A program made the position numbers and the translations under genes. Positions 4,904 to 48,081 of a stretch of DNA of 48,081 bases are shown one piece after another. Source of the DNA: Escherichia phage AN_ECEAS; sequence record PP944860.1; one strand, 5' to 3'. The notes under the pieces are model-generated. The model saw only the letters and a list, made by a program, of their open reading frames with translations. It was not told where the DNA came from and ran no database searches. How positions within the stretch are numbered: the stretch's first letter is position 1; the number at the start of each line of letters is the position of its first letter.

Positions 4904-5299
4904 ATGAACGAACAAGCATTGGCCTTTATGAGGTCACTAGTTCCAGCTTTGCGTAACGTGCAAGATGAAACGCTGGATGTATGGCTTGAACTTGCTAAAC
5001 TTTACATCTGCACCAGTAAATTTGGTGATGATGCTTACAAGGCGCTTGCACTGTACACTATGCACATCGCCTTTCTTGATGGTGCGCTTAAGCAGAATGA
5101 GTCTTTGGATGATTATGGCAAGAAGGTGACTAGTTACTCCCTGAGTGGTGAATTTTCCATTAGCTATGAATCAACATCTCAATCGCAGTCAGCACTAACA
5201 GCAACTCCGTGGGGCCGACTGTACTGGAATCTTCTACGTAAGAAAGGTGGTGGATTTGGCTTAATTACGTCCACTTGGCGTGGGTGTGGTTGCCTATGA
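4904..5299 (+). CDS. putative head-tail adaptor protein
   Basis: ORF with RBS GGAGG before ATG 4904; position between capsid and tail genes. Confidence 0.3.
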   Translation: MNEQALAFMRSLVPALRNVQDETLDVWLELAKLYICTSKFGDDAYKALALYTMHIAFLDGALKQNESLDDYGKKVTSYSLSGEFSISYESTSQSQSALTATPWGRLYWNLLRKKGGGFGLITSTWRGCGCL

Positions 5300-8230: not shown

Positions 8231-11203
8231 ATGGCAACTAACGAAATTGCTGGTATCACGCTAGCCGTCGACGTAGCTCAGGTCGATAAGGGTACGCAAT
8301 CCTTACAGAAATTCAGGCAAGCAAACGAGCAAGCTGCAACAGGCATTAATAGCTTCGTCAACGCCGAACTTGTAGCCAAGACTCAAGCAAGGGACACTGC
8401 AAGGCAGCTTGAGGAGCAGCGCAAATCTTTCGCATCACTTCAGCAAGCCATAGACCCAACCGCTGCTAAATTCCTGAAGTTGCAGAAAGCAGCAACAGAT
8501 TTGGACAAAGCATTTGAATCCGGGATAGTTCCTGATGATGAATTCTTCAGGCTTGGCTCTGTTATTGAAACTCAAATCAATAAGCTAAACAGGTCTAAAG
8601 CCGCTCTTAGCGAAGAAGGCAGGGCTGCACTACAGGCATCAATAGATAAAGAGAAAGCAACAACAGCAGCGCAAAAGTTCATTCAATCTCTTGAGAACGA
8701 GGCGAATGCAGCAAGCCTGACAAGGACTGAACTTCTTCAGCTTAAGGCTGCTCAGCTAGGAGTTAGTGACCAGGCTGCACCGATTATCGACAGGATTGGA
8801 AAGGCTGCCGAGGCATCTGCGGTACAATTGCAGAAGCAAAGCTCCGCTTTTGTTAAGTCTGGGCTTAGTGCCGGTCAATACAAGCAAGCAATACGACAGC
8901 TACCAGCTCAGATTACAGATATCGGAACATCTCTTGCTGGCGGCATCCCAATCTGGCTCATTGCAATTCAGCAGGGCGGTCAGATTAAGGATAGTTTTGG
9001 TGGCATTGGCAATACAGCAAGGTTTGCATTAGCAGCCATTAATCCATTAACGGCAGTTGTTGGGACTTTGGGATTGGCTCTTGGTGCTCTTGGTGTTGCA
9101 GCTTATCAGGCCGACAAGAATACTCGCGGACTAGCATCAACGATAACACTGGTTGGCAACTCAACTATTACATCAACAGCGCAGATAAATCAGGTTGTTG
9201 ATGGAATCGAGAGCTCAACGCTAGCCACGCGCGGACTTATCCAGGAGATAGCTAACAGCCTGGTAGCAAACGGCAATCTAACGCTTACACAGATAGACAA
9301 AATAACTAAGGCAACCGCGCAGTGGGCAACTGTAACATCAACTGACTCGAAAACTATTCTTGGGTACTTTGACCAGATTACAAAGGACCCAATTCAAGGT
9401 CTGATTGCACTCGATAAGCAGTTCAACTTCCTTCAGTCAGGGCAGTTAAAATACATTGAGAATATCAGGAAGACCGCTGGAGAAACGGAGGCTGTAACAG
9501 CAGCTACAGAGCTATTCGCTAACGTTATGGAAAACAGGCTCGCGGACGTTGCGCTAAGCCTTAACCCGCTTGAAAGTGCATGGAATAGCTTCAGGAAGTT
9601 TGTAAGTGAGATCTGGGATGATATAAGCAAAAGGACGCTTGGGGCGCTTAACTTAATAACTGACGTTGTTGCGGGTACGATTGAGCAGATAAGGTCGTTA
9701 ATAAACTCCGGTGATATCCTATTAGGCGAGTTTGCAATAGCCGCAACCAAGACTCTTCAGTCAATCCCTGGACTTGGGGATTTAGGCAATGAGGCAATCG
9801 CTGAACAGCAAAAGATTGTTGATGCAGCCAAGAAGCAAAATGAGGAGTTAGCAAAAAGCATAGCTGAGCGAGATGCTAGAATCAGGAAGGGTGAGCTTGG
9901 TTATGTTGAGAGTAACAATAACACCAACCCGAGCGGCAACAAAACATCAACTGATAAGGAGTTCGGAGCAAGGAAGAAGGCGCTAGCTGATGAGCTTGAT
10001 ACAATAAAGAAAGCAAGGAGCGAGAGGAATAAGGCAGTAAAAGAAGAGAGGGATTTAACTTTATCTTATGAATCTGGTGTTCTTGCTCTTCAGGCTCAGT
10101 TAAAGGTTTTACAAGAGCACAAGACGATAAACGATGTAATAAGTAACGAACGAAAGCAACTATTCCAGGAGGAAGCAAAGTTTGCAATACTTGAGCAAAG
10201 AAAGGCCGATGGCAGCTTAACTAAGTCCCAAGCTAAGCTACTTGCTCAGAAGAATATCATTCTTGAACAGGCTAAACAGAAGGCTGAGCTTGGTGACCAG
10301 ATTGTGCTTCAGGAGAGGTCAAACAAGTTACTTGATGACAACCTCAAGAAGACTGTGCAGATTAAGAATGAGGCAAATAATGTTTCGCTTGCTGCTAATT
10401 TATCTGACAGGGAGAAGCAGAGGGCAAAAGAGCTTCAGGCTCTACAGTCCAATCAGGTAAACAAAGGTGGCTCTGTTGATGATACTGACTTTCAGGCTTT
10501 ACTCGAAGCTAGGCGTAATTTCTATGCTCAAGAGGATGCGCTACGTGAAAACTGGCTCGCTGGTGTGCAGTCATCCTTCGCAAATTGGGCAGAGAGCGCG
10601 ACAGATGCTTTCTCAATTGCTGGTGAATTAACAACTTCTGTCTTTACAGGAATTACGGAGCAGATTACTAGCCTTGTGACAACTGGCACGGCAGACTTCA
10701 GGAGTTTTACCGTTGAAATCCTGAAACAGATTGCGAAGATTGCTACTCAGCTTCTGATTGTGAAGGCGATTGAGTCAAGCTTAAGTAGCTTTGGTGGCAC
10801 TGGCGGCGCAATTGGTTCAATTGGTAGCGCTCTTGGCTTTGCTGGCGGCGGTTATACTGGTGATGGTGGGAAGTATCAACCTGCCGGAACTGTGCACCGC
10901 GGTGAGTTTGTATTCACAAAAGAAGCAACAAGCAGAATTGGCGTTAAGAATCTGTATAAGCTAATGCGAGGTTATGCAAATGGCGGTGCTGTTGGTGGGC
11001 CTTCTGGATATGCTAATGGTGGAGTTGTTGGCGGTACTAATGTCAGTGTTGGTGGTGTGACGGTTAACGTAAGCTCTGGATTTAGTAGCGGTAATGATGC
11101 TAAGGCGATAGAATCTGGAGTCAAGGTTATCGTTGCTGAGGAAATCAGCAAGTCATTCCAGCAGGGCGGCAGAGCCTTTGCTTATCTGAGGGGTTACAAC
11201 TAA
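8231..11203 (+). CDS. tail tape measure protein
   Basis: 990 aa, long helical/coiled-coil regions, Gly-rich C-terminal part, canonical position after chaperones. Confidence 0.8.
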   Translation: MATNEIAGITLAVDVAQVDKGTQSLQKFRQANEQAATGINSFVNAELVAKTQARDTARQLEEQRKSFASLQQAIDPTAAKFLKLQKAATDLDKAFESGIVPDDEFFRLGSVIETQINKLNRSKAALSEEGRAALQASIDKEKATTAAQKFIQSLENEANAASLTRTELLQLKAAQLGVSDQAAPIIDRIGKAAEASAVQLQKQSSAFVKSGLSAGQYKQAIRQLPAQITDIGTSLAGGIPIWLIAIQQGGQIKDSFGGIGNTARFALAAINPLTAVVGTLGLALGALGVAAYQADKNTRGLASTITLVGNSTITSTAQINQVVDGIESSTLATRGLIQEIANSLVANGNLTLTQIDKITKATAQWATVTSTDSKTILGYFDQITKDPIQGLIALDKQFNFLQSGQLKYIENIRKTAGETEAVTAATELFANVMENRLADVALSLNPLESAWNSFRKFVSEIWDDISKRTLGALNLITDVVAGTIEQIRSLINSGDILLGEFAIAATKTLQSIPGLGDLGNEAIAEQQKIVDAAKKQNEELAKSIAERDARIRKGELGYVESNNNTNPSGNKTSTDKEFGARKKALADELDTIKKARSERNKAVKEERDLTLSYESGVLALQAQLKVLQEHKTINDVISNERKQLFQEEAKFAILEQRKADGSLTKSQAKLLAQKNIILEQAKQKAELGDQIVLQERSNKLLDDNLKKTVQIKNEANNVSLAANLSDREKQRAKELQALQSNQVNKGGSVDDTDFQALLEARRNFYAQEDALRENWLAGVQSSFANWAESATDAFSIAGELTTSVFTGITEQITSLVTTGTADFRSFTVEILKQIAKIATQLLIVKAIESSLSSFGGTGGAIGSIGSALGFAGGGYTGDGGKYQPAGTVHRGEFVFTKEATSRIGVKNLYKLMRGYANGGAVGGPSGYANGGVVGGTNVSVGGVTVNVSSGFSSGNDAKAIESGVKVIVAEEISKSFQQGGRAFAYLRGYN

Positions 11204-11623: not shown

Positions 11624-12379
11624 ATGGCAAGTTTAAAGTTTGAAAACCAGCTTCAATCACTTTTTCCTGGTGAAGTGGTTACGCTTATTGAGGTTGACGG
11701 AAGTAAATTCGGGGCAAGGGTTTACAGGTTTCATGGGGAGAACATCTCATACACGCCTGAAGAAATCATGCAAGCCCAAGCGTCCGGCCAGCCACTACCA
11801 TCCAAGACAATCACTTTCCGTGGAGAAGAGTATGGAGCCAGGCCTTTCGGTATTAGCGGCATTAATCTTACTTCTGACGGCAAAGCAAACAAGCTCACGC
11901 TAATTTTATCAAACGTAGACCAGGCTGTTTCCGCGCTAATACGTCAGTATAATGGCATGGTTCAGGCTAAGGTGACAATTTGGGTTACTATCAGGGATAA
12001 TATCAATGAGGACGGCAGCATTGCAGATGGTGATTATCGTAAGATGGTTTACTTTATTGAGCGCCCAAAGCAGGTTGACTACAAAACTGCCTCTTTTGAG
12101 TTATCTAGCCCAATTGATATGGATGGCATTTATATTCCAGCGAGGTTAGTCCAGTCAGTATGCTACTTCGCTTCTCGCGGCTGGTATCGCAGCGGTAACG
12201 GTTGTGATTATGCCGGGAATCGATACTTTGATAAAGACAATAATCCGGTTGATGACCCTGGCCTGGATTTCTGCGCCGGAACTGTTGATGCATGTAAGTT
12301 AAGGTTTGGTGAAAACAACCAGCTATCATTTGGAGGTTGTGCCTCTGCCAGTTTACAAGCTAAGAATAACCAGAACTAA
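11624..12379 (+). CDS. minor tail protein (lambda L-like)
   Basis: 251 aa with C-terminal Cys cluster (C..C....C..C) as in gpL; position. Confidence 0.6.
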   Translation: MASLKFENQLQSLFPGEVVTLIEVDGSKFGARVYRFHGENISYTPEEIMQAQASGQPLPSKTITFRGEEYGARPFGISGINLTSDGKANKLTLILSNVDQAVSALIRQYNGMVQAKVTIWVTIRDNINEDGSIADGDYRKMVYFIERPKQVDYKTASFELSSPIDMDGIYIPARLVQSVCYFASRGWYRSGNGCDYAGNRYFDKDNNPVDDPGLDFCAGTVDACKLRFGENNQLSFGGCASASLQAKNNQN

Positions 12380-12389
12380 GGGGAGTAAA

Positions 12390-13148
12390 GTGCTTACACC
12401 AAAAGTTAAATTAGAAATCATGCGCCACGCAAAAGAGGATTACCCAAACGAATGCTGCGGGGTTGTCACACAAAAGGGCATGGCCCAGAAGTATCACAGA
12501 ATCACTAACGCATCAAAAGACCCCGAGAGTGAATTCATTCTTAATGCCAATGAGTATGCCGATATTGTCTTTAGTCTTGGCTACAGCGAATCAATTGTCT
12601 ATATCGCTCACTCACACACCGGAGATGGAGCCACCACTCGACCAAGCCCAGCAGATATATGCAGTTGCAATGAGTGTGAGATTCCTTATGTGATTGTTAG
12701 CTACCCTGAGGGGGATATGCGAATCCTTGAGCCTGAGGATATGCCGTTAGCAGGAAGGCCGTGGGGGCTTGGTAGCTTCGATTGTTGGGGGTTGATAATG
12801 GCGTTCCACGCAAAACACGGCGTTAAACTGGCTGATTACCGCGTTAATTATCCATGGTGGAACAAGGAGTATGGCGAAAATATCTATGACGAGAATTGGA
12901 TTAAGGAAGGATTTGAGCTAGTAGAAACTGATGATATTCCAGTTGGCTCCATGATTATGATGCAGGTTCAAAGTGAGACGACAAACCACGCAGGAATCTA
13001 CATTGGAGATAACAAGTTCCTGCATCACCTTTACGGAAAGATGAGTAAAGTAGATACTTATAGCGATTACTGGCGCGAGCGCACGGTTCGCATTGTTCGC
13101 CACAAAGATTTACCAGAAGGAGTAAACTACAATGCAGAGACTGATTAA
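12390..13148 (+). CDS. tail assembly protein (lambda K-like; JAB/MPN plus NlpC/P60 motifs)
   Basis: GTG 12390 with RBS AAGGGGAG just after upstream stop; JAMM-like HSHTGDGATTRPSPAD and Cys/His pair CWGL...H. Confidence 0.65.
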   Translation: MLTPKVKLEIMRHAKEDYPNECCGVVTQKGMAQKYHRITNASKDPESEFILNANEYADIVFSLGYSESIVYIAHSHTGDGATTRPSPADICSCNECEIPYVIVSYPEGDMRILEPEDMPLAGRPWGLGSFDCWGLIMAFHAKHGVKLADYRVNYPWWNKEYGENIYDENWIKEGFELVETDDIPVGSMIMMQVQSETTNHAGIYIGDNKFLHHLYGKMSKVDTYSDYWRERTVRIVRHKDLPEGVNYNAETD

Positions 13149-13707
13149 AATTAAACTTGGATTATCCCTCGGCAGGAAGTACGGAAAGATTCACGAACTT
13201 TGCGTTGAGTCAGTGCCCGAGGCGCTAAGGGCCCTATCTGTTAACATCCCAGCGTTCAAGGAATTTATGCAAAGCCATGCCGGGCAGAACACAAGGTTTG
13301 CAATCTTCGCGGATGGTAAGAACCTTAATGAACATCGCATTAAAGACTTCAAGGCAGTTAAAGAGATTCGCATCATGCCAATCCCTCAGGGTCGAAAGAG
13401 TGGTGGGTTGTTCCAGACTGTTTTGGGGGCTGCACTAATAGGTGCCAGCTTCTTTCTTACTGGTGGTATTGCAACCGCTGTTCTTGGTGCTGGTATCTCA
13501 CTAGCTGCTGGCGGTGTAGCTCAACTGCTTTCTCCACAGGCAGCTGGATTAAAGACACAGGAGTCAGCGCAAAACAGGGCTTCATATGCCTTTGGTTCTG
13601 CCGTAAATACTGTAGCGGCTGGTTATCCTGTGTGTTTGCCATATGGGTACAGGTCTGTTGGTGGCTCAGTATTTAGCGCAGGCAGTTACTCAGAGGATAT
13701 TAGTTAA
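13132..13707 (+). CDS. tail assembly protein (lambda I-like)
   Basis: 191 aa with Gly-rich hydrophobic C-terminal half; position between K-like and J-like genes. Confidence 0.5.
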   Translation: MQRLIKIKLGLSLGRKYGKIHELCVESVPEALRALSVNIPAFKEFMQSHAGQNTRFAIFADGKNLNEHRIKDFKAVKEIRIMPIPQGRKSGGLFQTVLGAALIGASFFLTGGIATAVLGAGISLAAGGVAQLLSPQAAGLKTQESAQNRASYAFGSAVNTVAAGYPVCLPYGYRSVGGSVFSAGSYSEDIS

Positions 13708-13787: not shown

Positions 13788-16700
13788 ATGGCACAAGATA
13801 TTAAGATTTATGGGAGTAAGGGCGGTAGCCAGAAACAGAGACAGCCTGTTGAGCAACCTGACAACCTGGTATCTGTAAACAAGGTTAAAGTACTTTTGGC
13901 GGTAGCGGATGGTGAGGTTGATAGTTCTTTTTCACTTCGTGATTTGTACCTGGCTGATGTTCCCGTTCAGAATGCAGATGGTACTTTAAACTACGAAGGA
14001 GTCACGGCTGAATTTAGGCCGGGAACTCAAGATCAGGATTATATTCCTGGACTTGACGGTGCTAACTCGGAGGTTCAGGTTAGCCGAGAAATCACCAACA
14101 GCACTCCTTACATTATTGCCGTTAACAACAGTCAGCTATCGGCAATTAGGGTTAAGTTGTTTTGGCCAAGACTGATTAGCCAAGAAAGTAATGGCGACCT
14201 TAATGGCACTACGTGCGAGTACGCGATTGACTTATCTGTTGATGGCGCAACTTACACTGAATACACGCGCGGCGTAGCTAATGGCAAGACAACTAGCGGA
14301 TACGACAGAAGTATCAGGGTTAACCTTCCAGCGGAGTTCTCTAGCGCACTGGTAAGGATTCGAAAGATTACGGCAGATTCAGAAAGTTCTACGCTGGTTA
14401 ACGACATGCAAATTACGACCTATCAGGAAGTAATTGATGCTAAATTCCGCTACCCACTTACAGCGCTGGTTTACGTTGAGTTCAGTTCTGACCTCTTCCC
14501 TAACGGAATCCCGACGATTTCAATCAAGAAGAAGTGGAAGTTGATTCGCGTTCCAACTAACTACAACCCAGAGACAAGGACTTACAGCGGAACCTGGAAC
14601 GGCACCTTTAAGATGGCGTATTCCAATAACCCGGCGTGGGTTCTTTACGACTTGGTGACGAATCAGCGTTACGGACTTGACCAGCGAGAGCTTGGCATTA
14701 CTATTGATAAGTGGGGTCTGTATGAGGCGGCGCAATTCTGTGACCAGATGGTTCCAGATGGTAAGGGTGGAGTTGAGCCGCGCTACCTGTGTGATGTTGT
14801 CATTCAGCAGAAAGTTGAAGCATATCAGGTAATCCGTGATATTTGCTCTATCTTCCGTGGGCTGACATTCTATGACGGCGAGCAGATAGGGATTGTTGTC
14901 GATAAGCCGCGTCAACCATCGTACGTATTCACCAATGACAACGTTGTTGATGGATTGTTCAACCGTACATTTGGTAGCGATAAGTCACTTTACACGGTTG
15001 CCAACGTTCAGTTTGATGACGTTGAAAACTCATACCAACAGGATGTTGAGCCAGTATTCGAGTTAGAGGCAACAAGGCGTTTTGGTTACAACCCGGTCGA
15101 CCTTACAGCTATTGGATGTACTCGCAGGAGTGAGGCAAACCGCCGCGGGCGCTGGTTATTAAAGACGAACATTCGCAGCGAGACTATTAGTTTCACTACT
15201 GGTCTGGAAGGTATGATTCCAATGATTGGTGAGGTTATTGCAGTTAATGACCAGGCATGGTCTAGCAACTACACCCTTAACCTTTCTGGTCGTATCGAGT
15301 CAGTAAGTGGGTTGCAAGTTTTTGTGCCATTTAAGATTGATGCTACTGCTGGCGACAGGATTCTAATAAACAAGCCTGATGGAATGCCAGAGTACAGGAC
15401 CATTGCATCTGTATCTGAAGATGGTATGACGCTGCAACTTAATACAGCGTTTAGCTTTACTCCTCAGCCTGACACAGTATTTGCGATTGATAAGGAAAAT
15501 CTTGCTCTTCAGCAATATGTTGTGACCGGGATTCAAAAAGCAGACAGCGATGGAGACGATGCGTTCGGTTACAGCATTACGGCAGTCGAGTACGACCCGA
15601 ATAAATACGACGAAATTGATTACGGCGTAAACATTCAGGATAGGCCATCGTCAATCGTTGAACCTGACACGCTACTTGCCCCAGAAAATGTTCAGGTGAG
15701 CAGCTACAGCAAGGTTGTGCAGGGTTTATCAGTTGAAACAATGGTAATCACCTGGGACAAAGTTCAGTACGCCAAGACTTACACGGTACAGTGGCGTAAG
15801 GAGAACGGAAACTGGATTAACGTACCGCGCACAGCAAACACAGAAGTTGATATTGAAGGTATTTATGCTGGTATTTATCAGGTTCGCGTGAGGGCTGTTT
15901 CTGATACTGAAAACGTATCCGCATGGTCTGACATTGTTTCAGCAAGCCTAACTGGTAAAATTGGAACGCCGTCTGAGCCTACGGTAATCACAGCTTCAGA
16001 TGATGAAATATTCGGCATTAGGGTTAAGTGGGGATTTCCTGAAAACTCAGCCGATACGTCATACACTGAATTGCAGCAAGTAGCCGACAATGGTGATGGT
16101 ACTTACTCACCAGAGAACGCCAGTTTGTTAACGCTAGTTCCTTACCCGGGTTACGAGTATTGGCACACTACATTGCCGGCAGGAAAGGTTATCTGGTACA
16201 GGGCGCGACTGATTGACAAGATTGGTAACGTCTCACCATGGACTGATTTTGTAAGGGGTATGGCAAGCGATGATGTGTCGTCAATCATTGGTGATATTAA
16301 GGTTGATATAGAAAACTCAGATGGGTTCAAGTATCTCCAACAGAATGCCATTGAGTCAAACGGAGCTATTCAGGCGCAAGCGGAATCAATAATTGAGAAC
16401 GCCCTGGCTAATGATGGTGACGTGCGTAGAATGACGAAGGAAAACGGCAAGAGGAAGGCCGAATTTGTTCAGGCTGTGAATCTTATCGCCGATGAAGAAA
16501 GGGCTCGCGTAGAGGCTCTGACGCAGCTTAAAGCGCAGATTGATGATGAGATTGTGGCTTCGTTGACAAGGATTGATACGGCGCTAGCGGAAGAAACGCA
16601 AGCAAGGACCACTGCGGACACTGCTTTATCTGCAAGGCTCGGTGAGAATGAAGCTGCTTTAAATGAGAAGCTGGATACTTACGTTACAGCTGATTCAATT

Positions 16701-18473: not shown

Positions 18474-18492
18474 CTTTAGCAATTCGTGCTAT
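18474..18492 (-). promoter_or_regulatory. dyad-motif promoter element (minus strand)
   Basis: Reverse complement of ATAGCACGAATTGCTAAAG; TATGAT and CATCGAAAC follow on minus strand before lipoprotein gene. Confidence 0.6.
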
Positions 18493-19155: not shown

Positions 19156-20127
19156 ATGACATTCAAAGTTTATTTAAATAACGAACTTAGCAACGAAGCC
19201 TATCACGAAGAGCAGGACCACATCTCTGGCTCTTCACTGGCTGAGATTCTTGCTACCTCACCAGCTAAATGGAAGTTTAAGCAGCGCAATAACTCTAGCG
19301 CAGCACTTAAGTTTGGCACACTAAGTCACTGCATGATGCTAGAGCGCGAGGTGTTTGACTCAACATACATGCGAGCTACTGACTTTGACGAAGTGGAAGG
19401 ATTGATTACTAGCCAAACGGCTTTATCCGCAGCGCTTAAAAAAGTTGGAGTTTCAGGCACGTCAGGGAAGGGTTATAACGAGCTTGTAGAGATGATGTAT
19501 AAGTGTGGTGAGGATTGGCCTGTTAAATGGTTAATTGAGCAGCAGGAGAGCGCTCATGCGCTAATTAGTGGCAAAGAGCTAGTTGCTGCGAAAGATTACG
19601 ATAAAGTAATTCAAATGCGAGAGGTTCTAACTAATATTCCGGCATATGATTCGGTAATTAATTCACCATCAGCGCAGAAAGAACTATCAATATTTGGTGA
19701 GATTCTCGGTTGTGGTGTTAAGGTTCGTCTTGACCATGTGGATGTTGTTGATGGTATTGTCTACATTACTGACTATAAAACTACGTCAGACGCAAGCCCG
19801 AGGGGGTTTGGGAAGTCAGCTTATGACCATGGATACCTGTGCAAGATGGCACTTCAGCGAGATCTGTTTGTGAAAGCCTTTAATGAGAAACGTAAGGTTG
19901 TAGTTCGCCTTCTGGCGCAGGAGAAAACAGAGCCTTACTTACCAATGAGCTACACTCTTACGGATGAACAGCTTAGAATTGGACGTTTACAATATTGTGA
20001 GGCACTGTCAATTTACAAGAATTGCAAGGAAACAAACATGTGGCCCGGATACTCAAACGGAGCAACGGAACAGGAGTTAATGATACCTGAATGGGTAATT
20101 AACAGTTATAAGGATATTATAAAGTGA
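19156..20127 (+). CDS. putative PD-(D/E)XK-family exonuclease (recombination partner of ERF)
   Basis: Motif ITDYKT consistent with D-x-K nuclease core; position upstream of ERF/SSB. Confidence 0.45.
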   Translation: MTFKVYLNNELSNEAYHEEQDHISGSSLAEILATSPAKWKFKQRNNSSAALKFGTLSHCMMLEREVFDSTYMRATDFDEVEGLITSQTALSAALKKVGVSGTSGKGYNELVEMMYKCGEDWPVKWLIEQQESAHALISGKELVAAKDYDKVIQMREVLTNIPAYDSVINSPSAQKELSIFGEILGCGVKVRLDHVDVVDGIVYITDYKTTSDASPRGFGKSAYDHGYLCKMALQRDLFVKAFNEKRKVVVRLLAQEKTEPYLPMSYTLTDEQLRIGRLQYCEALSIYKNCKETNMWPGYSNGATEQELMIPEWVINSYKDIIK

Positions 20128-20608
20128 TTGATAAATTTAATGATATCTTTAGATATGATGGTGAAAAGCTGTACTATAAAAACTGGGTAAACGGTAGAAG
20201 TAAGTCTCTTGGACTAGAGGCTGGTAGCAAACAGAATGGTTACTTGAAAGTTACAATTGGCGGCAGAAATTATAAAGTTCATAGAATTATATGGGAAATG
20301 GTTAATGGTGAAATACCTGATGGAATGGAATAGATCACATAAATCACGTAAAGGATGATAATAGGATTGAGAATCTAAGGCTGGTAACTCACAAGGAAAA
20401 CTCAAGAAATAGGAAAAAGAGGTCAGATAACTCTTCAGCAACACAGGGCGTTTCTCTGCATAAGATTACAAGGAAGTGGCAATCTTATTGCTCTGATAAT
20501 GATGGAAAAATTATGTACCTTGGATTATTTGAGGATATTAATGATGCTATTGATGCTAGGGTTAAGTTCGCCTCACAATGTGACTTCCATGAGAATCATG
20601 GTAAATAG
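20124..20608 (+). pseudogene. HNH homing endonuclease, frameshifted (N-terminal part in frame 0 to 20333, HNH core in -1 frame 20321-20608)
   Basis: Frame 0 ends ...IPDGME*; -1 frame continues IDHINHVKDDNRIENLRLV..., matching the intact paralogue at 36850..37347. Confidence 0.5.
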
Positions 20609-20623
20609 CAATAATTGCTAAAG
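20605..20623 (+). promoter_or_regulatory. dyad-motif promoter element, variant ATAGCAATAATTGCTAAAG
   Basis: Overlaps HNH pseudogene stop; upstream of ERF gene. Confidence 0.45.
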
Positions 20624-20678
20624 ACAAATCTTATAGGTGGGGTATCATTACCCCATAGAAACTAAAGAGAGATAGGTA

Positions 20679-21329
20679 ATGAAAACTTCAGAACAAAACA
20701 AGCAGGTATTGAAAGCGTTATTTGAGGCTAAATCAAAGTTTGCAAAGGCTGAAAAGTCAAAGCAGAACTCGCACCTCAAGAACAAGTACGCGACCCTTGA
20801 AGACGTTTTGGCGGCTGTAGAGCCAGGACTCGCAGATAGCGGCCTTGTCATGTTTCAAGGCATGATTGATGATGAAGCCACAACTAGAATTAAGGTTGAA
20901 ACAACTGTCTATCATGCAGAATCTGGAGAGTGGGTCAGCTTCCTGACAATCGTCCCAATCAGCAAGCAAGATGCTCAAGGTTATGGGTCATCACTTACAT
21001 ACGCTCGCCGTTACGCAATCACAGCGGCGTTAGGTTTAAGCCAGGCAGATGATGATGGTCAGTTAGCAGTTAAAGGCATCAACTCATTTAAGAAAGATTT
21101 AGCTAAGTGCAACACTCTTGATGACCTGCGAGATGTATACAAAGAAGCTAAGCAGTCTCTTGATTCAGCTGGTTGGCTGGTGATTGAACCTCACATTATT
21201 GAGCGTAAGGCAGAGATTCAGGCTAATGCAACTAACGGCTTCAATCCTGCAAAACCTAAACAGGTTGCACAAAAGTCTGTTCAAGAAGAAAAAGTTGAAG
21301 TACAATCTCAAGAAATCGACACATTCTAA
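20679..21329 (+). CDS. ERF-family single-strand annealing protein
   Basis: Motif GSSLTYARRYAITAALGL typical of ERF; adjacent to SSB. Confidence 0.7.
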   Translation: MKTSEQNKQVLKALFEAKSKFAKAEKSKQNSHLKNKYATLEDVLAAVEPGLADSGLVMFQGMIDDEATTRIKVETTVYHAESGEWVSFLTIVPISKQDAQGYGSSLTYARRYAITAALGLSQADDDGQLAVKGINSFKKDLAKCNTLDDLRDVYKEAKQSLDSAGWLVIEPHIIERKAEIQANATNGFNPAKPKQVAQKSVQEEKVEVQSQEIDTF

Positions 21330-24372: not shown

Positions 24373-24395
24373 TGTGTAAAGTCTCCATTTGTAAA

Positions 24396-25946: not shown

Positions 25947-26011
25947 AATAGGTTCGATAATTGATATTATACAGCAATGCAACGAACTAACAAACTGTCA
26001 GGATACTTAAA

Positions 26012-29000
26012 ATGCTTCCAGTAGAGCGCTTAGTGGCAAACTTTGATCAAGAGAAAATCAAACAGATTCAGAAAGATTACCAGTTTGGAGACATAACTCC
26101 TTACGAATTCCAGTGTGTAACATTTGACGCAATTGGTAAGGCTATTGGTAAGTACGAGGCTCCATTCATCGCAGACCTGTCTGTATCTGCTGGTAAAACA
26201 ATAATTCTTGCCATGATTGGGAAAAGAATGGAGCAACTTGGACTTCCTTATATGGTACTGTCTCGCCAGTCAGAGATTATCAGCCAGAACGCAGAGGAAC
26301 TCCGTAACTTCGGTATCCGTAATAGCGTCTATTGCGCTGGACTTAACGTTAAATCAGTTTACTACCCAACCATAGTGGCTAGTGAGGGTACAGCTGCCAA
26401 TGGCCTGTTTAAGGGGCTTGGTGACTATGTTCCTGCTGTTATCGCGATAGATGAGTGCTTAACTGGAGACACGATGATAACCACCGATTCAGGGATGATG
26501 AGGATTGATAGCGAAGACCTTATCAATCATAAAATAAAATGCATAAACGAAAGCACTGGTGATTACTTCTATCATAAGCCAAAAAGAGTTTTTACTAATG
26601 GTGTAAGACATGTATCATCAATTAAATTAGAAAGCGGAGAGGAAATAAAATGCACGAGTACACACAAACTTTATTCGAACGGCTGCTGGGTAGGAGCGGG
26701 AAAACTTCGTATTGGGATGAATCTGTCGCTAGACGGCTCGCAGGACAAATTTACGAAAAAGCTCCTGCGTGCAAGTGTGGCTGTGGTGAAAAAGTTATGC
26801 CGCATTCAAGCAAGGGGTTAGGCGTACTTCTTAAGAACCCTTTCGATTTCTATTTGGATTACAGAACGGGGCATCATAATTCAACCGTCAACCCATCAAT
26901 GGAGGTTGATGACTTTTTACATCAAAACATTCTTGCGGCAATGGCTGGTGATGGTTGCTTGATTAAAAATACAGAAAAAGGAACGCATAGGCTATCTTGG
27001 AATATGGGAAATAAGGAGCACGCACTAAGCAAGGTTGAAAGGTTTGCAAAACTAAACCCTAGATACAGGGAGAAGAAAAACCCTGGATTTGGCGACAACT
27101 GGTTTTGCGTATCAACATCATGTACGAAAGTTCTGGATTCATATGCTGATAAGTACGGAAATTCTAAGGATGGTTACGATATTGGAAAGATATGCAGAGA
27201 GCTTGATCCAGTTGGTTGGGCTGCTTACTTTGGTGATGATGGTCATTGCACTGTAAGCTCAGGGAAGAGGGTTGTAGAAATCCACACCGAATCATTTAGC
27301 AGGCGTGAAGTTCAATCAGTAGTTGATGCGCTAATAGCATTTATTGCTAATGACGGAGTTAATGTTAGAAGCTATATTGGCGGCAAGAAAAAGAGAGAGC
27401 TTTACTCAGTATCAATAACAACGAGGTCGGCACAAGATGAGTTTTTTAAGAGAATTAGTAAGCACATGGAAAATGGCGTGGAATACAAAATCAAGCAAAA
27501 TTAAAGACATCTCACCCATTGGCAAGGAACTTGTTTGGGATATAGAGATGCCTGAGCACCATAATTTCATTGCTGACGGGGTCGTGGCACATAATTGCCA
27601 CATGGTGGACCATATGGATATCGTAGAAGCTGAAGAGAATGAGGAAACATTCGAGCAGATGAGCACGAAGAAGGGTGAGATGGTCTTTAAGGATGGTGTG
27701 AATACCGGGCTTCTTGGCACTGGTCGCGCGCAATACACGTTAATCATTACCGAAATGAAGCGTCGATGCAAGGAGAAGTACGGTCGCGAACTTCGTATCT
27801 TTGGGTTAACTGGTAGCCCGTACCGTAACAACGACCACATTGTAGTTAGTAACCCAAATGTCCGTGGATTCTGGCGCAAAACTGTAATGCAAGTGCCAAC
27901 CAGCTACCTTGTTGACTTGGGGTTCGTTGTTCCTACTGTCTACGGTGAAGTTGGTGATTTGGGCTACGACCTTAGTGAGTTCACTCCTGATGGAAGTGAT
28001 GGGGTTAAGGACTTCAGCAAGAAAGAAATGGATGCGATGGCTGCAAAGATTCACGAAAACCAAACGATGACACAAAAGATAATGGGATTTGCTGCTAGGT
28101 TTATGGAAACAAGGAATGCTGCATTGGTAACTTGCGCTGGCAAACAGCATTGCGAGGAGGCGGCAGCCGCACTTCCAGAAGGTGTTACTTGGGCGATAGT
28201 TACCAACTCCACTGGTGATAAGAAGCGTAGAGAGATACTTGAGAAGGCAGCCAGCGGAGAATATAAGTTCATATTTCAGATTGGTTGCCTCACAACTGGC
28301 GTAAACTGCCCCCCGTGGGATACAAGCATTATCCTGAGGAAGGTTGGTAGCATTACTCTACTCATTCAGTTGCTTGGTCGTGGTATGCGTATCCTTAAGA
28401 AGAAGCACAAAGAAGCTGGAATGGTAAAAGATGACCATGTTGTTCTTGATTTTGCCGGGACGCTTGACGATATGGCAGAACTCTACTTCGACCCAATTAT
28501 AGAAGAGGTTCAGGACCAGAAGTTTAAGTCATCCAGGAAAGGGGGTGATGAACCAAGAATTTGCCCAGCATGTTCTTATGAGAATTCTCCTTTCGCACGG
28601 CGCTGTAATAATGTGATTGACGGTAAACGATGCGAGCATTTTTTTCAGTTCCGTCTTTGCGAAGATATTGAGGACCCGCAGACGAAAGTTATCGTTAAGA
28701 AAGGTTGCGGAGAGAAAAATGACGTTGCAGCAAAGAACTGCCGCTGCTGCGGAGAGATGCTGATAGACCCAAATGCAAAGCTATCTGGAAAAATGTATCG
28801 GAAAGGGGACTGGTTGAGAGTTTATGACTTCAAGATTGGGTTGACAAAAAACCAGTCAGGGATCGTTGCTTCATATGAGGTAATGGCTCATAGTGGAGAT
28901 AAGTTCCGAGCTTATGAAACATTCTTCCCGGAGTCAGACCATCGTGTTTGTTCTGTCAAATGGAAGGCGTTTTGCTCAACTCACATCGAGAACAGGACTG

Positions 29001-36834: not shown

Positions 36835-36853
36835 CATTATCAATTTGTGCTAT
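36835..36853 (-). promoter_or_regulatory. dyad-motif promoter element, variant ATAGCACAAATTGATAATG (minus strand)
   Basis: TATAAT follows 22 nt after the TTGATA arm; upstream of 35196..36779. Confidence 0.5.
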
Positions 36854-37347
36854 TTGCCATGATTTGGGTGATAACCCAGCCTCACCTCTGCAACAATTCT
36901 TGCCTCACATGCAGAGATAAAGTCATCAAAAAAACCAAGGTGAACAGTCTTTCCACCACTCTGTATTGAGGCCCTCCACTTACCTGTTCTTTTGTATATG
37001 GCGACTCCAGTTACACCACTTTTATTATCAAACCTTAATGATGAGTTCATTGAATTCACTTTTTGGGTAACAAGCCTTAGATTTTCAATCCTATTGTCAC
37101 GCCTATTTCCATTTATGTGGTCTATGAATAGACAATCAGGTATGTCTCCATTAGTCATCTCCCATATAATTCTGTGAGCCATTGTGTAGCCGATTCCCTT
37201 ATTGCTAACCCTAACGTACCCGCTTGTTGTAACCTCCGTGTTAACTGGCTTATTTGCATATTTTGTATTCCAAGATTGAGTTCTATCTGACCTCTCCTTT
37301 CTGTACAAAACTGAATCTTTTATATAAAAAATTTCATTCCAGTTCAT
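36850..37347 (-). CDS. HNH homing endonuclease
   Basis: Motif IDHINGNRRDNRIENLRLV plus C-terminal AP2-like region; ATG 37347 overlaps upstream stop. Confidence 0.65.
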   Translation of the reverse strand: MNWNEIFYIKDSVLYRKERSDRTQSWNTKYANKPVNTEVTTSGYVRVSNKGIGYTMAHRIIWEMTNGDIPDCLFIDHINGNRRDNRIENLRLVTQKVNSMNSSLRFDNKSGVTGVAIYKRTGKWRASIQSGGKTVHLGFFDDFISACEARIVAEVRLGYHPNHGK

Positions 37348-43635: not shown

Positions 43636-43804
43636 GCTTTCAATCCGATTAATGGGTCGTAGTTGCAAAAGTTGCACTCAAGAATTTATCGCGTCGGTTA
43701 CTGCTAAGTCCTCAGAGGAAGCAGTAGCGAAAGTTAAGGTAATGTCTGGTGCCGACCCGGATTACCACAAATTCCTAGTAGCTTACGTTCGTGAGCGAAA
43801 GTAA
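43616..43804 (+). CDS. hypothetical protein
   Basis: Overlapping ORF; terminator downstream. Confidence 0.35.
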   Translation: MQLWDVKLSIRLMGRSCKSCTQEFIASVTAKSSEEAVAKVKVMSGADPDYHKFLVAYVRERK

Positions 43805-43857
43805 AAGAAGTTCTACTCTCTGTTTGTTTCATATCTCTCGTTGTTGTTCGATACTTC

Positions 43858-43881
43858 GCCCTCTTCTTGAGGGCTTTTTTT
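43858..43881 (+). terminator. rho-independent terminator before packaging module
   Basis: GCCCTC-TTCTT-GAGGGC stem-loop plus T7. Confidence 0.7.
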
Positions 43882-43892
43882 CGTTTGCTATA

Positions 43893-43901
43893 TGATATAA
43901 T
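43893..43901 (+). promoter_or_regulatory. extended -10 promoter candidate TGATATAAT upstream of the TerS gene
   Basis: Exact TGnTATAAT just downstream of terminator 43858-43881. Confidence 0.4.
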
Positions 43902-43928
43902 GCATCTCTAAACAAAGGAGGTAACAAA

Positions 43929-44453
43929 ATGAAAGACGAAAACTTCACCAGTCAGGCGCAGGAAAAGGTCAGCTCTGGCAACTTTAAAGCCATGTACAAT
44001 AAAAAGTACTCAGACATTACAACGCTAGCCAAAAACCGAAGCATGACACCCGAACAGCTATTTGAATTCGCCGTGAAATACTTCTCATGGGCTGAGGACC
44101 AGGCAATCAAGGCAATCGAGACAGCCAGCTTCCAGGGTGTGGTAAAAGAGAGCCTGGTGCACAAACCACGAGTCTTCACGCTAACCGGATTCTGCCTTTA
44201 CTGCGGCGTCACCCATAGCGCCATCGAGAAATGGAGGAAGTCGGCTGGTTACGATGAGGTGATGGCATTCATTGATTCCGTGATTCGCGAGCAAAAGTAC
44301 CAGTTAGCAGCGTCCGGCATCATTAACCCTGGCATGATTTCTAAAGAGCTCGGTATCGACAAGCCGCAGGAGATTAACATCACCAGCACATCTTCAGCCA
44401 ACGACGTCGATACGATGAAAGAGGCGCTCGAATCGGTTATTAGCAAGTTGTAG
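43929..44453 (+). CDS. putative terminase small subunit
   Basis: 174 aa, RBS AAGGAGG, immediately upstream of HNH and TerL. Confidence 0.5.
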   Translation: MKDENFTSQAQEKVSSGNFKAMYNKKYSDITTLAKNRSMTPEQLFEFAVKYFSWAEDQAIKAIETASFQGVVKESLVHKPRVFTLTGFCLYCGVTHSAIEKWRKSAGYDEVMAFIDSVIREQKYQLAASGIINPGMISKELGIDKPQEINITSTSSANDVDTMKEALESVISKL

Positions 44454-44468
44454 CACTTTTTGTTAAAA
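44450..44468 (+). promoter_or_regulatory. dyad-motif promoter element GTAGCACTTTTTGTTAAAA
   Basis: GATAAT hexamer downstream; upstream of HNH gene 44521. Confidence 0.5.
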
Positions 44469-44520
44469 ATAGCGAACCAATCAGTGGGATAATGGGTCAC
44501 TAAATAAACAAGGAGAATAT

Positions 44521-44997
44521 ATGGATTGGGGTGATTTCTTCTATCTTAGTGATGATTCCGTTTCTGGTATAAAGTGGAAGGTTAATAAGGGTCGGTCAAT
44601 GGCTGGTGACGACGCTTTAACATCTGTTGGTAATGGATATTACAAAGGCAGACTCAACCAGAAGACAACGTACGCCCACAGGGTCGTTTACTTTCTTAAC
44701 TATGGCGTAATCCCTGATGTTATAGATCATATGGATGGTAATGGGCTTAACAACTCAATAGAAAACCTAAGGGATGGCACCACAGCCAAGAATATGCAAA
44801 ACAAGCTATGTAAGGGTTACAGCTACAATAAGAGGGATGACGTTTATTATGCTCAGGTAACTACAAATGGGGTGACTAAACATGTAGGTTCTTTTGCAAG
44901 CAAGGAATTGGCTATTGCTGCTTACCTAAAGGAGAAGGAATTGCAGCATGATTTCTATAACAAAGAGAGGAAGATATGCTTGTTTGGGAAAGTATGA
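44521..44997 (+). CDS. HNH homing endonuclease (terminase-associated position)
   Basis: Motif VIDHMDGNGLNNSIENLR plus AP2-like C-terminus; RBS AAGGAGAA; overlaps TerL start. Confidence 0.65.
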   Translation: MDWGDFFYLSDDSVSGIKWKVNKGRSMAGDDALTSVGNGYYKGRLNQKTTYAHRVVYFLNYGVIPDVIDHMDGNGLNNSIENLRDGTTAKNMQNKLCKGYSYNKRDDVYYAQVTTNGVTKHVGSFASKELAIAAYLKEKELQHDFYNKERKICLFGKV

Positions 44998-46538
44998 GCC
45001 AGCAGGAAAAGCTGGCTGTAAAACTTATATCAGAGAATAGTTTTGAGGGATTTTTAAGGTGCTGGTTTTCCATTACTCAGGGTGAGAGATACATCCCTAA
45101 CTGGCACCACAAGTATCTTTGCAGAATCATCGATGAGATTATCGCAGGTGAGCGTAAGGACACAATCATCAACATAGCACCCGGGAGTGGGAAGACAGAG
45201 ATAGCATCAATTCACTTCCCAGCCTACTCCATGGTTAAGTTGAAGAAGGTAAGGAACCTTAACATCTCGTTTGCCGACTCACTTGTTAAGCGTAACTCTA
45301 AGCGAGTGCGTGACCTGATTAAGTCGGTTGAGTTCCAGGAGTTGTGGCCCTGCAAGTTTGGCACATGTAAGGATGATGAGCTACAGATTCTGGATGAGTC
45401 TGGTAAGGTTCGGTTTGAGTCAATATCTAAGGCTGCTGGAGGCCAAATAACCGGCGCAAGGGGTGGATATATAACGGATTCATATAGCGGAGCGGTTCTG
45501 TTAGATGATTTTGACAAACCAGCCGACATGCTTTCTGCTGTTTTTCGCGCTAACAATCACGTGATGCTAAAGAATACAATACGCTCTCGTAGGGCGAGCT
45601 CCGTAAAAGGAAAGGCGACGCCGATTATCTCTATCCAACAGCGCCTTCATGTGAATGATAGTACGTGGTTCATGATGAATGGCGGTATGGGTATTAGCTT
45701 CGACTTGATTAAGATACCGGCGCTCGTAACTGAGGATTACGTCGAAACGCTTCCTGACTGGATTAAGCAGCAATTCATTGATGACGTTCTATCAAGCGAA
45801 TATATTGAGCGTGATGGTGTTAGGTACTATAGCTATTTCCCTGGCAAGGAATCTGTTCACGACCTAGTTGCAATGTGGGATTCTGATAGCTATACATTCC
45901 TTAGCCAGTATCAGCAAGAACCAGTAGCACTTGGCGGCAACCTGATTAACGTAGACTGGCTTCAACGCATTAGCGACACTCTGCGACCGCCAGCTAAGTA
46001 CGATTACAGGTTTATGGTCCTTGATACTGCGATGACAACCAAAAGTTACAGCGACTTTAGTGTCATGCAGCTATGGGGTTATAAGGATGGGAAGATTTAT
46101 CTGCTTGACCAGCGGCGCGGTAAATTTGAAGCTCCTGAGCTCGAGGCTGAGTTATTGAATTTCGAGAAGATGGCTAGGGCATCCAATCAGATAGATGGCA
46201 TCCTTCGTAAAATCATCATCGAGAAGAAAGCCTCTGGTATTGGCCTGATTCAATCAGCCGGAAGGGTTATGCGAACGCCTATCGAGCCGTACGTTCCTGA
46301 TAACGATAAGCTGACTCGCGTAATGAGTGCATTGCCGCAGATTAAAGCTGGTAACGTAATCCTTCCGGAGTCTGCTACTTGGCTTAATGGCTTGCTAACG
46401 GAGATTGCGGCATTCACGGCAGATGATTCACATGTTCACGATGACCAGATAGACTGTTTGACAATGGCTGTCAACCTGGTACTGAACATTGCAGAAGACC
46501 CTAAATCGAGGATGATGCGCCTCGCTGGCATCAAATAG
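44976..46538 (+). CDS. terminase large subunit
   Basis: Walker A IAPGSGKT, Walker B VLLDD, C-terminal nuclease acidic motifs; RBS AGAGAGGAAG. Confidence 0.8.
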   Translation: MLVWESMSQQEKLAVKLISENSFEGFLRCWFSITQGERYIPNWHHKYLCRIIDEIIAGERKDTIINIAPGSGKTEIASIHFPAYSMVKLKKVRNLNISFADSLVKRNSKRVRDLIKSVEFQELWPCKFGTCKDDELQILDESGKVRFESISKAAGGQITGARGGYITDSYSGAVLLDDFDKPADMLSAVFRANNHVMLKNTIRSRRASSVKGKATPIISIQQRLHVNDSTWFMMNGGMGISFDLIKIPALVTEDYVETLPDWIKQQFIDDVLSSEYIERDGVRYYSYFPGKESVHDLVAMWDSDSYTFLSQYQQEPVALGGNLINVDWLQRISDTLRPPAKYDYRFMVLDTAMTTKSYSDFSVMQLWGYKDGKIYLLDQRRGKFEAPELEAELLNFEKMARASNQIDGILRKIIIEKKASGIGLIQSAGRVMRTPIEPYVPDNDKLTRVMSALPQIKAGNVILPESATWLNGLLTEIAAFTADDSHVHDDQIDCLTMAVNLVLNIAEDPKSRMMRLAGIK

Positions 46539-46553
46539 CACGTTTTGCTAAAG
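46535..46553 (+). promoter_or_regulatory. dyad-motif promoter element ATAGCACGTTTTGCTAAAG
   Basis: Overlaps TerL stop; TATAGT 46574-46579; upstream of moron 46608. Confidence 0.55.
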
Positions 46554-46607
46554 ACGCGCCGCCAAGGATGGCTTATAGTTACTTCACGCAAACGAGAGGA
46601 GTAAAAA

Positions 46608-46961
46608 ATGAAAGCAGTATTTAAAGGGTATAAAAAAGCTGGTTATTTTGATTTTACCGTTGGTAAGATTTATGACTTATCAAGAACGCCTGGAAGTAAT
46701 AATGAATACGTCAAAGTTAAGGATGATAAAGGCTATTTGGGCGTAATTAATCTTAGTGTTTATGATTTCGAAGTTATAGAGCCTACCGATTTTGTCGTTA
46801 AAGGTGATAATTTTAAAGTTGAAAAGGCTGGGATTAAATACTTCATCAACAAAGACATAGTAACTAAAGAGGCATTTTATGAAGTCAGAAGGGAGGTTCG
46901 CCAGTTAACACTTAATGGAGTGAAAACATCATCAATCAAGTTCGAAGTAAAATTCGAGTAA
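46608..46961 (+). CDS. hypothetical protein (AT-rich moron between TerL and portal)
   Basis: Own dyad-motif promoter 46535-46553 and own terminator; RBS GAGAGGAG. Confidence 0.5.
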   Translation: MKAVFKGYKKAGYFDFTVGKIYDLSRTPGSNNEYVKVKDDKGYLGVINLSVYDFEVIEPTDFVVKGDNFKVEKAGIKYFINKDIVTKEAFYEVRREVRQLTLNGVKTSSIKFEVKFE

Positions 46962-46983
46962 CCATAAAAGCTATGCTAAACTA

Positions 46984-47005
46984 AGCCCCTAAATGGGGCT
47001 TTTTA
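46984..47005 (+). terminator. rho-independent terminator after moron 46608..46961
   Basis: AGCCCC-TAAAT-GGGGCT stem-loop plus T4. Confidence 0.6.
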
Positions 47006-47019
47006 TTGGAGCAAATAAA

Positions 47020-48081
47020 ATGGTAAAAGCAGATTCATACGCCACGCAATTTCTTGGTGGCTCCAGTGATGGTAGCGAGATTTACGGGCACTTTGGCAAC
47101 ACGTATCTTACACCTCCTTTCGCTGATTCACTGTACGCATCAAACTCAATTGTACGCCGCATCGTCGACACCATACCGGAGACAGCAATCGCCGCAGGTT
47201 TCCATATCGATGGTATTGATAACGAAGGTGAATTCTGGTCCAGGTGGGATTACCTGAAGGTTAACGAGTCAATCTCTGACGCATGGTCATGGGCGAGGTT
47301 ATTTGGCGGCTCTGCAATTGTGGCTATCGTTAAGGACAATCGTGCGCTAACTAGCCCGGTACGTGAAGGCGCGGAACTTGAATCACTTCGCGTTTATGAG
47401 CGTAGCCAGGTAAGAGTTCAGACTAAGGAGGAAAACCCTCGCAATGTGCGATTCGGTAAGCCATTAACGTATCGCATCACGCCAGAAGGTGGCGCCATGT
47501 TTTATGATGTGCACTACTCGCGAGTTCACATTATTGATGGCGAGAAGATTCCTAGTTCATTGCGTCGCGGTAATGACGGGTGGGGTGCTAGCGTTCTGGT
47601 TCCTGACCTGCTTGAATCAATCAAGGATTATCAGACGTGTGAGAAACTGGCAACTCAGTTATTGCGCCGCAAGCAGCAGGCGGTGTGGAAGGCTAAAGGC
47701 CTTGCTGAACTGTGTGACGACGCGGAAGGTTTTGGTGCGGCGAGGTTGAGGCTTGCCCAGGTTGATGATAACTCTGGCGTTGGTCGCGCGATTGGTATCG
47801 ACGCTGAAGCTGAAGAGTACAGCGTTCTTAACTCGGATATTGGTGGGATTGATGGATTCCTCGATAAGAAGTTCGACAGAATTGTTGCTCTGAGCGGTAT
47901 CCATGAAATCATTCTCAAAGGTCGTAACGTTGGCGGGTTGTCATCAAGCCAGAATACAGCGCTAGAGACTTTCCACAAGCTAATCGACCGCAAGCGCAAT
48001 GAGGAGTTACTTCCAGTGCTTGGTTTCTTAATCCCATTCATCACAACCGAGCAGGAATGGTCAGTTGAGTTTAACCCTCTA
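47020..48081 (+). CDS. putative portal protein, N-terminal part (ORF open at window end, continues at 1..285)
   Basis: ATG 47020 with RBS GGAG; no stop before window end; position after terminase. Confidence 0.5.
   Translation, partial: MVKADSYATQFLGGSSDGSEIYGHFGNTYLTPPFADSLYASNSIVRRIVDTIPETAIAAGFHIDGIDNEGEFWSRWDYLKVNESISDAWSWARLFGGSAIVAIVKDNRALTSPVREGAELESLRVYERSQVRVQTKEENPRNVRFGKPLTYRITPEGGAMFYDVHYSRVHIIDGEKIPSSLRRGNDGWGASVLVPDLLESIKDYQTCEKLATQLLRRKQQAVWKAKGLAELCDDAEGFGAARLRLAQVDDNSGVGRAIGIDAEAEEYSVLNSDIGGIDGFLDKKFDRIVALSGIHEIILKGRNVGGLSSSQNTALETFHKLIDRKRNEELLPVLGFLIPFITTEQEWSVEFNPL
48007..48081. repeat. terminal direct repeat (identical to 1-75)
   Basis: Exact 75-bp identity of the two window ends. 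Confidence 0.95.

Follow-up and report, generated by a model that had tools for sequence, protein, structure and literature searches.

A frameshifted HNH homing endonuclease gene at the exonuclease–erf junction of Escherichia phage ES, probably a pseudogene through the loss of a single A

We have analyzed a stretch of 48,081 nucleotides from Escherichia phage AN_ECEAS (PP944860.1; in the following, the window) and find that the HNH gene at 20124–20608 consists of two open reading frames, the second of them in the −1 frame, which jointly encode an HNH_3 endonuclease of 161 aa. This is probably a free-standing homing endonuclease gene which has become a real frameshift pseudogene by the loss of a single A. 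The window is a circular permutation of the genome of Escherichia phage ES (ES10; OR466728.1; Drexlerviridae, Braunvirinae), whose source is hospital waste water in Pakistan. The features of the locus and the paralogues of the gene are collected in Table 1.

Table 1. Coordinates in the window of the split HNH gene, its surroundings and its two paralogues
Feature	Position	Strand	Remarks
Upstream gene, PD-(D/E)XK exonuclease (DUF3799)	19156..20127	+	323 aa, length as in phiA2-1
Shine-Dalgarno-like AAGGA	20110..20114	+	9 nt upstream of the GTG start
HNH gene, 5′ part	20124..20333	+	69-aa ORF, GTG start, premature TAG at 20331–20333
Inserted cassette, approximate	20125..20605	+	about 480 nt, by comparison with relatives without the gene
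Lesion	20329..20330	+	AA where the ancestor would have had AAA; GAA ATA to GAATA, between codons 69 and 70
HNH gene, 3′ part	20330..20608	+	−1 frame, 92 codons plus TAG, IDHINH...FHENHGK, stop
His72 codon CAC	20336..20338	+	first His of the HNH motif, now out of frame
Palindrome TAGCAATAATTGCTA and sigma-70-like erf promoter	20606..20648	+	AAGACA, 16 nt, TATCAT
Downstream gene, Erf-family single-strand annealing protein	20679..21329	+	identical Erf in contig ERZ27253577 k141_46313
Paralogue, HNH_3, intact	36850..37347	−	165 aa, 41% identical to the joined HNH protein
Paralogue, HNH, intact, more distant	44521..44997	+	158 aa, just upstream of terL

Starting from the GTG codon, frame 0 reads VIDKF...YKVHRIIWEMVNGEIPDGME, and after 69 codons its translation ends with ...HRIIWEMVNGEIPDGME at the premature TAG. 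The −1 frame is open from 20321 onwards, following a TGA at 20318–20320; its translation is WNGIDHINHVKDDNRIENLRLV...FHENHGK, reads WNG-IDHINHVKDDNRIENLRLV...FHENHGK across the junction and ends at the TAG at 20606–20608. When the joined 161-aa protein was compared with the window by tblastn, two abutting HSPs were obtained, one in frame +3 (20124–20330) and one in frame +2 (20330–20605), with a summed E value of 3e-88. On the joined frames the Pfam HNH_3 match extends over residues 50–95 and runs across the junction at residues 69/70 (9e-24), which is far beyond chance. The enzyme is not encoded in one uninterrupted frame, the frame changing at 20330/20331. A preliminary description of this DNA had placed the N-terminal part in frame 0 and the HNH core in the −1 frame up to 20608; translation, tblastn and Pfam all bear this out. 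Both paralogues that it had listed exist and are uninterrupted, and we add that the one at 36850–37347 lies on the minus strand, a detail absent from that description.

The 5′ part comprises the beta-sheet region at the N-terminus and reaches one third into the HNH_3 domain but includes none of the catalytic residues, and its N-terminus aligns with the homologues from residue 1. The predicted catalytic residues D71 and H72, the invariant residues N84 and N93 and a putative AP2-like C-terminal domain are all located in the 3′ part. His72 aligns with the DH of I-HmuI (1U3E) and is invariant among the homologues. We looked for an ATG, GTG or TTG start in the −1 frame and found none before 20513; on this ground we discard the idea that the catalytic half is translated by itself. 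Within the HNH_3 family the gene is to be entered as a pseudogene and not as an active member.

To locate the lesion we turned to the homologues. A protein search covering 5.8 billion proteins returned 443 relatives, the closest being 71% identical and most of them near 45–50%, and 61 of the 443 were taken into an alignment of the junction. In all 61 the spacing at the junction is ungapped and the sequence is read in a single frame, typically as IP(D/E)GM(E/Q)IDHINH and mostly as ...GMEIDHINH. The closest DNA relative, contig L006, has GGGATGGAGATAGAT where ES has GGAATGGA-ATAGAT, that is, one extra base exactly at this place, and over a longer stretch GGGATGGAGATAGATCAT is found opposite GGAATGGA-ATAGATCAC. 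Because the homologues are ungapped and L006 has one extra base there, the ES gene appears to have lost one A of GAA-ATA, two codons before the catalytic His72. Since the break precedes His72 by two codons, the predicted product has 69 aa and lacks any catalytic residue. Position and nature of the lesion can thus be read from the alignments. A one-base deletion near 20328–20332, turning GAAATAGAT into GAATAGAT, had been proposed before; it is supported by 61 of 61 homologues and by L006, which put the deletion at the very place named earlier.

The joined protein matches the HNH_3 profile (PF13392) with 83.3 bits (cut-off 24.8) over the whole of its 46 positions, and it also matches PHROG 99 (HNH endonuclease) at 1e-58. 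Judged by these profile matches it belongs to the HNH_3 family. In the homologue alignment D71, H72, N80, N84, L85, R86, N93 and N96 fall into invariant or near-invariant columns. I-HmuI is the only solved structure that was matched by sequence (1U3E; E value 2.6e-4, residues 39–110). Our evidence on the fold comes from the AlphaFold model of a homologue, P0003 (51% identical to the ES protein; pLDDT 89.5), which serves as a proxy. The best PDB match of this model is again I-HmuI, with 92 columns of the N-terminal and HNH part superimposed at an rmsd of 3.3 Å (probability 1.00), and the next matches, now to the C-terminal part, are the plant AP2 domains of WRINKLED1, TEM1 and AtERF1, with an rmsd of 1.3–1.4 Å over about 48 columns. 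Pfam AP2 was not detected in the ES C-terminus alone, and in the homologues P0008 and P0020 it stays below threshold (25–26 bits vs 33.3). Because the P0003 model matches first I-HmuI and then AP2 domains, and AP2 is found below threshold in homologues, the predicted architecture is of a type already known among phage homing endonucleases, HNH plus an AP2-like domain. The most probable reading is a free-standing gene of the HNH_3/I-HmuI-like class, in which a beta-sheet at the N-terminus is followed by the HNH nuclease core and a putative AP2-like DNA-binding domain at the C-terminus.

The start of the HNH gene overlaps the stop of the exonuclease gene in the sequence GTGA (20124–20127). In phage phiA2-1 the exonuclease gene is followed after 70 nt by erf, with no HNH gene between them, and the same arrangement (exonuclease gene, 70 nt, erf) recurs without an HNH gene in ERZ27253577 k141_46313, a metagenome contig with the same Erf protein as ES. 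In relatives without the HNH gene the exonuclease gene ends with ...AAATAG directly on the palindrome, and the junction of the phiA2-1 type reads ...GAATTGCTGAAATAGCACTAATTGCTAAAG.... The right end of the cassette in ES corresponds to this AAATAG, which closes the exonuclease gene in relatives without the insert; the ES exonuclease nevertheless still has 323 aa, and the boundaries of the insertion are precise, between ...AA(A/G) and TAG. Among close relatives the gene is hence either present or absent at a fixed site between two recombination genes, the exonuclease gene and erf. TR2 (Braunvirinae) and Opt-719 (Rogunavirinae) have other HNH genes at this site, with 46% and 43% identity to the ES gene, and in L006 an ES-type HNH gene adjoins a TR2-type erf, i.e., a different backbone. 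One site therefore harbors divergent endonuclease genes, and one gene occurs in different backbones. Because the gene is absent from two close relatives and different HNH genes occupy the site elsewhere, we regard it as a probable free-standing homing endonuclease gene.

The flanks of the insert have also diverged. Compared with a close relative without the HNH gene (L008), ES is 52–63% identical over the final ~130 nt of the exonuclease gene, as against 80–100% farther upstream; in the first ~120 nt downstream of the insert the identity is 85–88% and farther out it is 93–100%, the whole region being mosaic. In window 20000–20127 compared with L008 2800–2930 the end of the exonuclease gene has diverged, while the protein has kept its length and is similar. 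This pattern beside the insert could fit a co-conversion tract or a recoding of the target site, or the drop in identity could be ordinary phage mosaicism instead. The endonuclease content varies among Braunvirinae at other loci, too: phiA2-1 has HNH-type ‘endonuclease’ genes at 10670–11140, 14275–14763 and 25955–26434, in the tail module and beside the primase gene. At the corresponding positions ES lacks an HNH homologue; besides the gene described here it carries only the two paralogues at 36850–37347 and 44521–44997.

The TAG of the palindrome at 20606 is at the same time the stop codon of the HNH gene. The palindrome, TAGCA-N5-TGCTA, is 15 nt long and occurs 11 times in the window, with 0.08 copies expected; the copies start at 18477, 20606, 24397, 27335, 29565, 29819, 33387, 37796, 38413, 40840 and 46536. 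Most of them are followed by a −35 sequence of the AAGAC type, a spacer of 16–17 nt, a −10 sequence TATnAT and a conserved leader CCCATCGAAAC...AGAGAGA, and the arrangement of palindrome and promoter is also kept in phiA2-1, TR2 and L006. From their sequence context the palindromes look like parts of a phage promoter family with a common operator or activator site just upstream of the −35 sequence.

The gene seems to be broken in relatives as well. L006 (P0001; ENA MUNK18 scaffold_82982), the closest relative with 71% protein identity, has its HNH gene upstream of erf as in ES, and this gene contains an in-frame TGA (85–87) at the near-invariant Gly39, which probably makes it another pseudogene. 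The gene caller had placed the start of the L006 gene at the Met of WEM. The contig L047 (IMGVR_UViG_3300045988_020202) carries at 1495–1973 an HNH_3 gene which is 40–50% identical to that of ES and has a 1-nt deletion of its own in the Pro codon preceding DGMEIDH of the IPDGMEIDH motif, 12 nt upstream of the ES lesion; its downstream ORF begins at the Met of GMEIDH. Among 86 matched loci a split in the HNH gene was found only in L047, and there at another nucleotide. For two random events in a gene of 480 nt, breaks as close as 12 nt would coincide in roughly 5% of cases, and we do not consider this proximity significant. The comparisons indicate that the gene was inactivated independently in these two relatives. 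The synonymous sites between ES and L006 are saturated and dN/dS is not computable, and pN and pS are given instead (pN 0.18, pS 0.83). Because pN is low compared with pS, purifying selection has acted on the lineage of the gene over the greater part of its history. All invariant residues are kept in the ES gene and there is no second defect; since the rest of the gene is without such a defect, the lesion would be recent.

Whether the deletion is real depends on the quality of the available sequences. According to the ES10 paper the genome was assembled with SPAdes from Illumina paired-end reads; HNH genes are not mentioned there (PMC10957765). Window 1–43645 corresponds to OR466728.1 4361–48005 with four substitutions and no indel, and window 43647–48081 corresponds to OR466728.1 1–4435, the window having a terminal overlap of 75 nt. 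Because of the four SNPs and the differing ends, the two records represent separate assemblies of one phage or of two that are nearly identical. The single-base differences are located at 5276, 23629, 36071 and 36623; they may represent polymorphism in the population or another assembly or polishing of the same phage. In OR466728.1 the product names are scrambled, the exonuclease being listed as ‘capsid maturation protease’, Erf as ‘head morphogenesis protein’ and SSB as ‘terminase small subunit’; intact genes are left unannotated (e.g., window 12306–13707), of the 498-nt HNH paralogue only 201 nt are annotated, and the 3′ end (47992–48315) consists of an inverted duplication and a poly-G tract of about 150 nt. 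The ORFs of the tail assembly genes, which fall into a gap of the GenBank annotation, are intact.

The most serious alternative is a sequencing or assembly artefact, or a consensus from a mixed stock, in which case the phage would have GAA ATA (GAAATAGAT) and an intact HNH gene of 161 aa. We think this improbable, though well worth considering: the change concerns one base in a short run of A, the remainder of the gene is flawless, and OR466728.1 has been carelessly finished, as its poly-G tail, terminal inverted duplication and product names indicate. Furthermore the differences at four positions between the two assemblies point to some uncertainty or heterogeneity, both assemblies may stem from the same reads, and the gene comes from one isolate only, with no independent sample among the databases searched. 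Searches for the exonuclease and for the 69-aa ORF yielded only OR466728.1, the junction 26-mer was absent from IMG/VR, and in IMG/VR and the JGI metagenomes we found no relatives above about 52% identity. Against an artefact stands that in Illumina consensus sequences, here assembled from paired-end reads with SPAdes, indels in runs of three bases are rare. The deletion leading to GAATAGAT is moreover identical in both assemblies, which are four SNPs apart and show no indel differences over 43.6 kb. A poor consensus should betray itself by an excess of frameshifts throughout the genome; a tblastn scan of the window with the full set of phiA2-1 ORFs revealed no further genuine frameshift in a coding sequence, and we rejected this possibility. 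Additional flags of the scan at 24375, 38550 and 18530 were rejected as indels in non-coding leader or regulatory DNA which had come in by way of spurious stop-to-stop ORFs. Finally, breakage is confined to a single gene, which is selfish and dispensable and is also broken in relatives. The preliminary description had left the choice between a decaying selfish element and a sequencing error; the Illumina/SPAdes data, the two assemblies, the phiA2-1 scan and the two broken relatives favor decay and make a true mutation likelier than an error of sequencing. We infer that the deletion is in the DNA of the phage itself and not merely in the consensus.

A programmed or tolerated recoding is very unlikely. 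Here the ribosome would slip by −1 at G-GAA-TAG or hop from the GGA at 20322 to the GGA at 20327 and so produce a low dose of full-length nuclease; that the low dose serves to limit the expression of a toxic enzyme is just as hard to credit. It is true that the stop follows directly on the sole window in which a shift is possible (20321–20333), that the tandem GGAAT-GGAAT provides sites for re-pairing and that a second member of the family, L047, is broken 12 nt upstream. The overlap window of 13 nt, TGGAATGGAATAG, however, contains no slippery heptamer of the type X-XXY-YYZ, the RNA of 20334–20420 folds with −5.4 kcal/mol (z = +0.91 compared with shuffled sequences) and so has no extra structure, and the frame change is not conserved, 61 of 61 homologues being read in a single frame. 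L047 is broken at a different nucleotide and has no slippery motif in common with ES, and GGAATGGAA simply represents the codons of the ancestral Gly-Met-Glu. Programmed frameshifting and hopping were rejected as there is no slippery heptamer, no downstream structure and no conservation. We give equally little credence to the more general idea that the breaks in ES and in the unrelated contig L047, both close before the codon of the catalytic His, are selected or used and do not reflect neutral decay, be it by a low-efficiency recoding which throttles a toxic nuclease or by retention of the N-terminal fragment; in the latter variant a catalytically dead N-terminal DNA-binding piece of 69–71 aa might protect or mark the target site. 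Least probable of all is that the frame change was made not by a one-base deletion but by a 5-bp tandem duplication (GGAAT GGAAT) in an ancestor of the type IPDG-IDHINH: there is a perfect 5-nt tandem repeat at 20322–20331 and one distant paralogue has a shorter linker (IPDVIDH), but we rejected this explanation because it implies a linker shortened by two residues relative to all 61 closer homologues, which have the longer linker GM(E/Q) without a gap, and L006 aligns with a single 1-nt gap.

Returning to the loss of a single A, we envisage the following history. In a Braunvirinae phage the HNH gene would have inserted itself into the 3′ end of the exonuclease gene, immediately before the erf promoter. 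It would have shared a transcript with the exonuclease gene, and the GTGA overlap would have coupled its translation to that of the exonuclease. Later one A would have been lost from GAA-ATA at codons 69/70, and translation from the GTG would since then end after 69 residues. The codons of His72, of the metal-binding Asn residues and of the DNA-binding domain would be stranded in a frame without a usable start codon, and because the catalytic and DNA-binding parts are both in this frame no active nuclease would be made. We infer an active homing enzyme as the ancestor, and the 69-aa product presumably has no function. Homing endonuclease genes typically degenerate once they have become fixed, a textbook course of events (the Goddard–Burt cycle), and the state found in ES would be the step of degeneration in a cycle of invasion, fixation, decay and loss, with a recent inactivation. 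The frameshifted gene is an ordinary case at an ordinary stage in the life of homing elements.

For the annotation this means that OR466728.1 24488–25038, which is blank in GenBank, should be labeled as an HNH homing endonuclease pseudogene. The exonuclease–erf junction of T1-like phages offers a tidy example of homing-endonuclease turnover by invasion, decay and replacement, and ES could be used as a natural knock-out for tests of the role of the HNH nuclease in phage fitness or marker exclusion. There is no consequence for the therapeutic use of phage ES10, and beyond annotation the finding is of little importance.

The HNH genes of two other Drexlerviridae, TR2 (UXQ90365.1) and vB_EcoD_Opt-719 (UGO52666.1), share insertion site, orientation and family with the ES gene, and they have in common with it a C-terminal FH(E/K)NHGK whose stop lies on the promoter palindrome. 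Unlike the ES gene both are intact, and at 46% and 43% identity they are only distantly similar to it; the TR2 gene moreover has a leader of its own of 75 nt where the ES gene has the GTGA overlap. L006 differs from ES by the nature of the defect, a TGA at Gly39 instead of a frameshift, and by its backbone, which is TR2-like and not ES-like. With I-HmuI of the Bacillus phage SPO1 (1U3E) the ES protein shares the core HRxxxE..G...DH..G/H..DN...NLR and, by prediction, the N-terminal sheet and the Asn-rich metal site; the sequence identity is only about 21–25%. I-HmuI is, however, encoded in an intron, and its C-terminal domain is of the helix-turn-helix kind. The ES gene is free-standing and frameshifted, and its predicted C-terminal domain is AP2-like.

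A frameshift-inactivated homing gene of the HNH-AP2 type has been described in a phage before, namely gp115–gp116 of ICP1 (Barth et al. 2023, PMC10448857), and the ES locus is a new, so far unannotated example of such genes. In both cases an N-terminal HNH part is combined with a C-terminal AP2 part (a predicted one in ES), the gene is free-standing beside core phage genes, and a frameshift has split it into two ORFs. The ICP1 genes have diverged too far to be matched by the HNH_3 profile, but the ES gene belongs to HNH_3 as a canonical member, and the split in ICP1 lies between the two domains, whereas in ES it runs through the nuclease domain itself.
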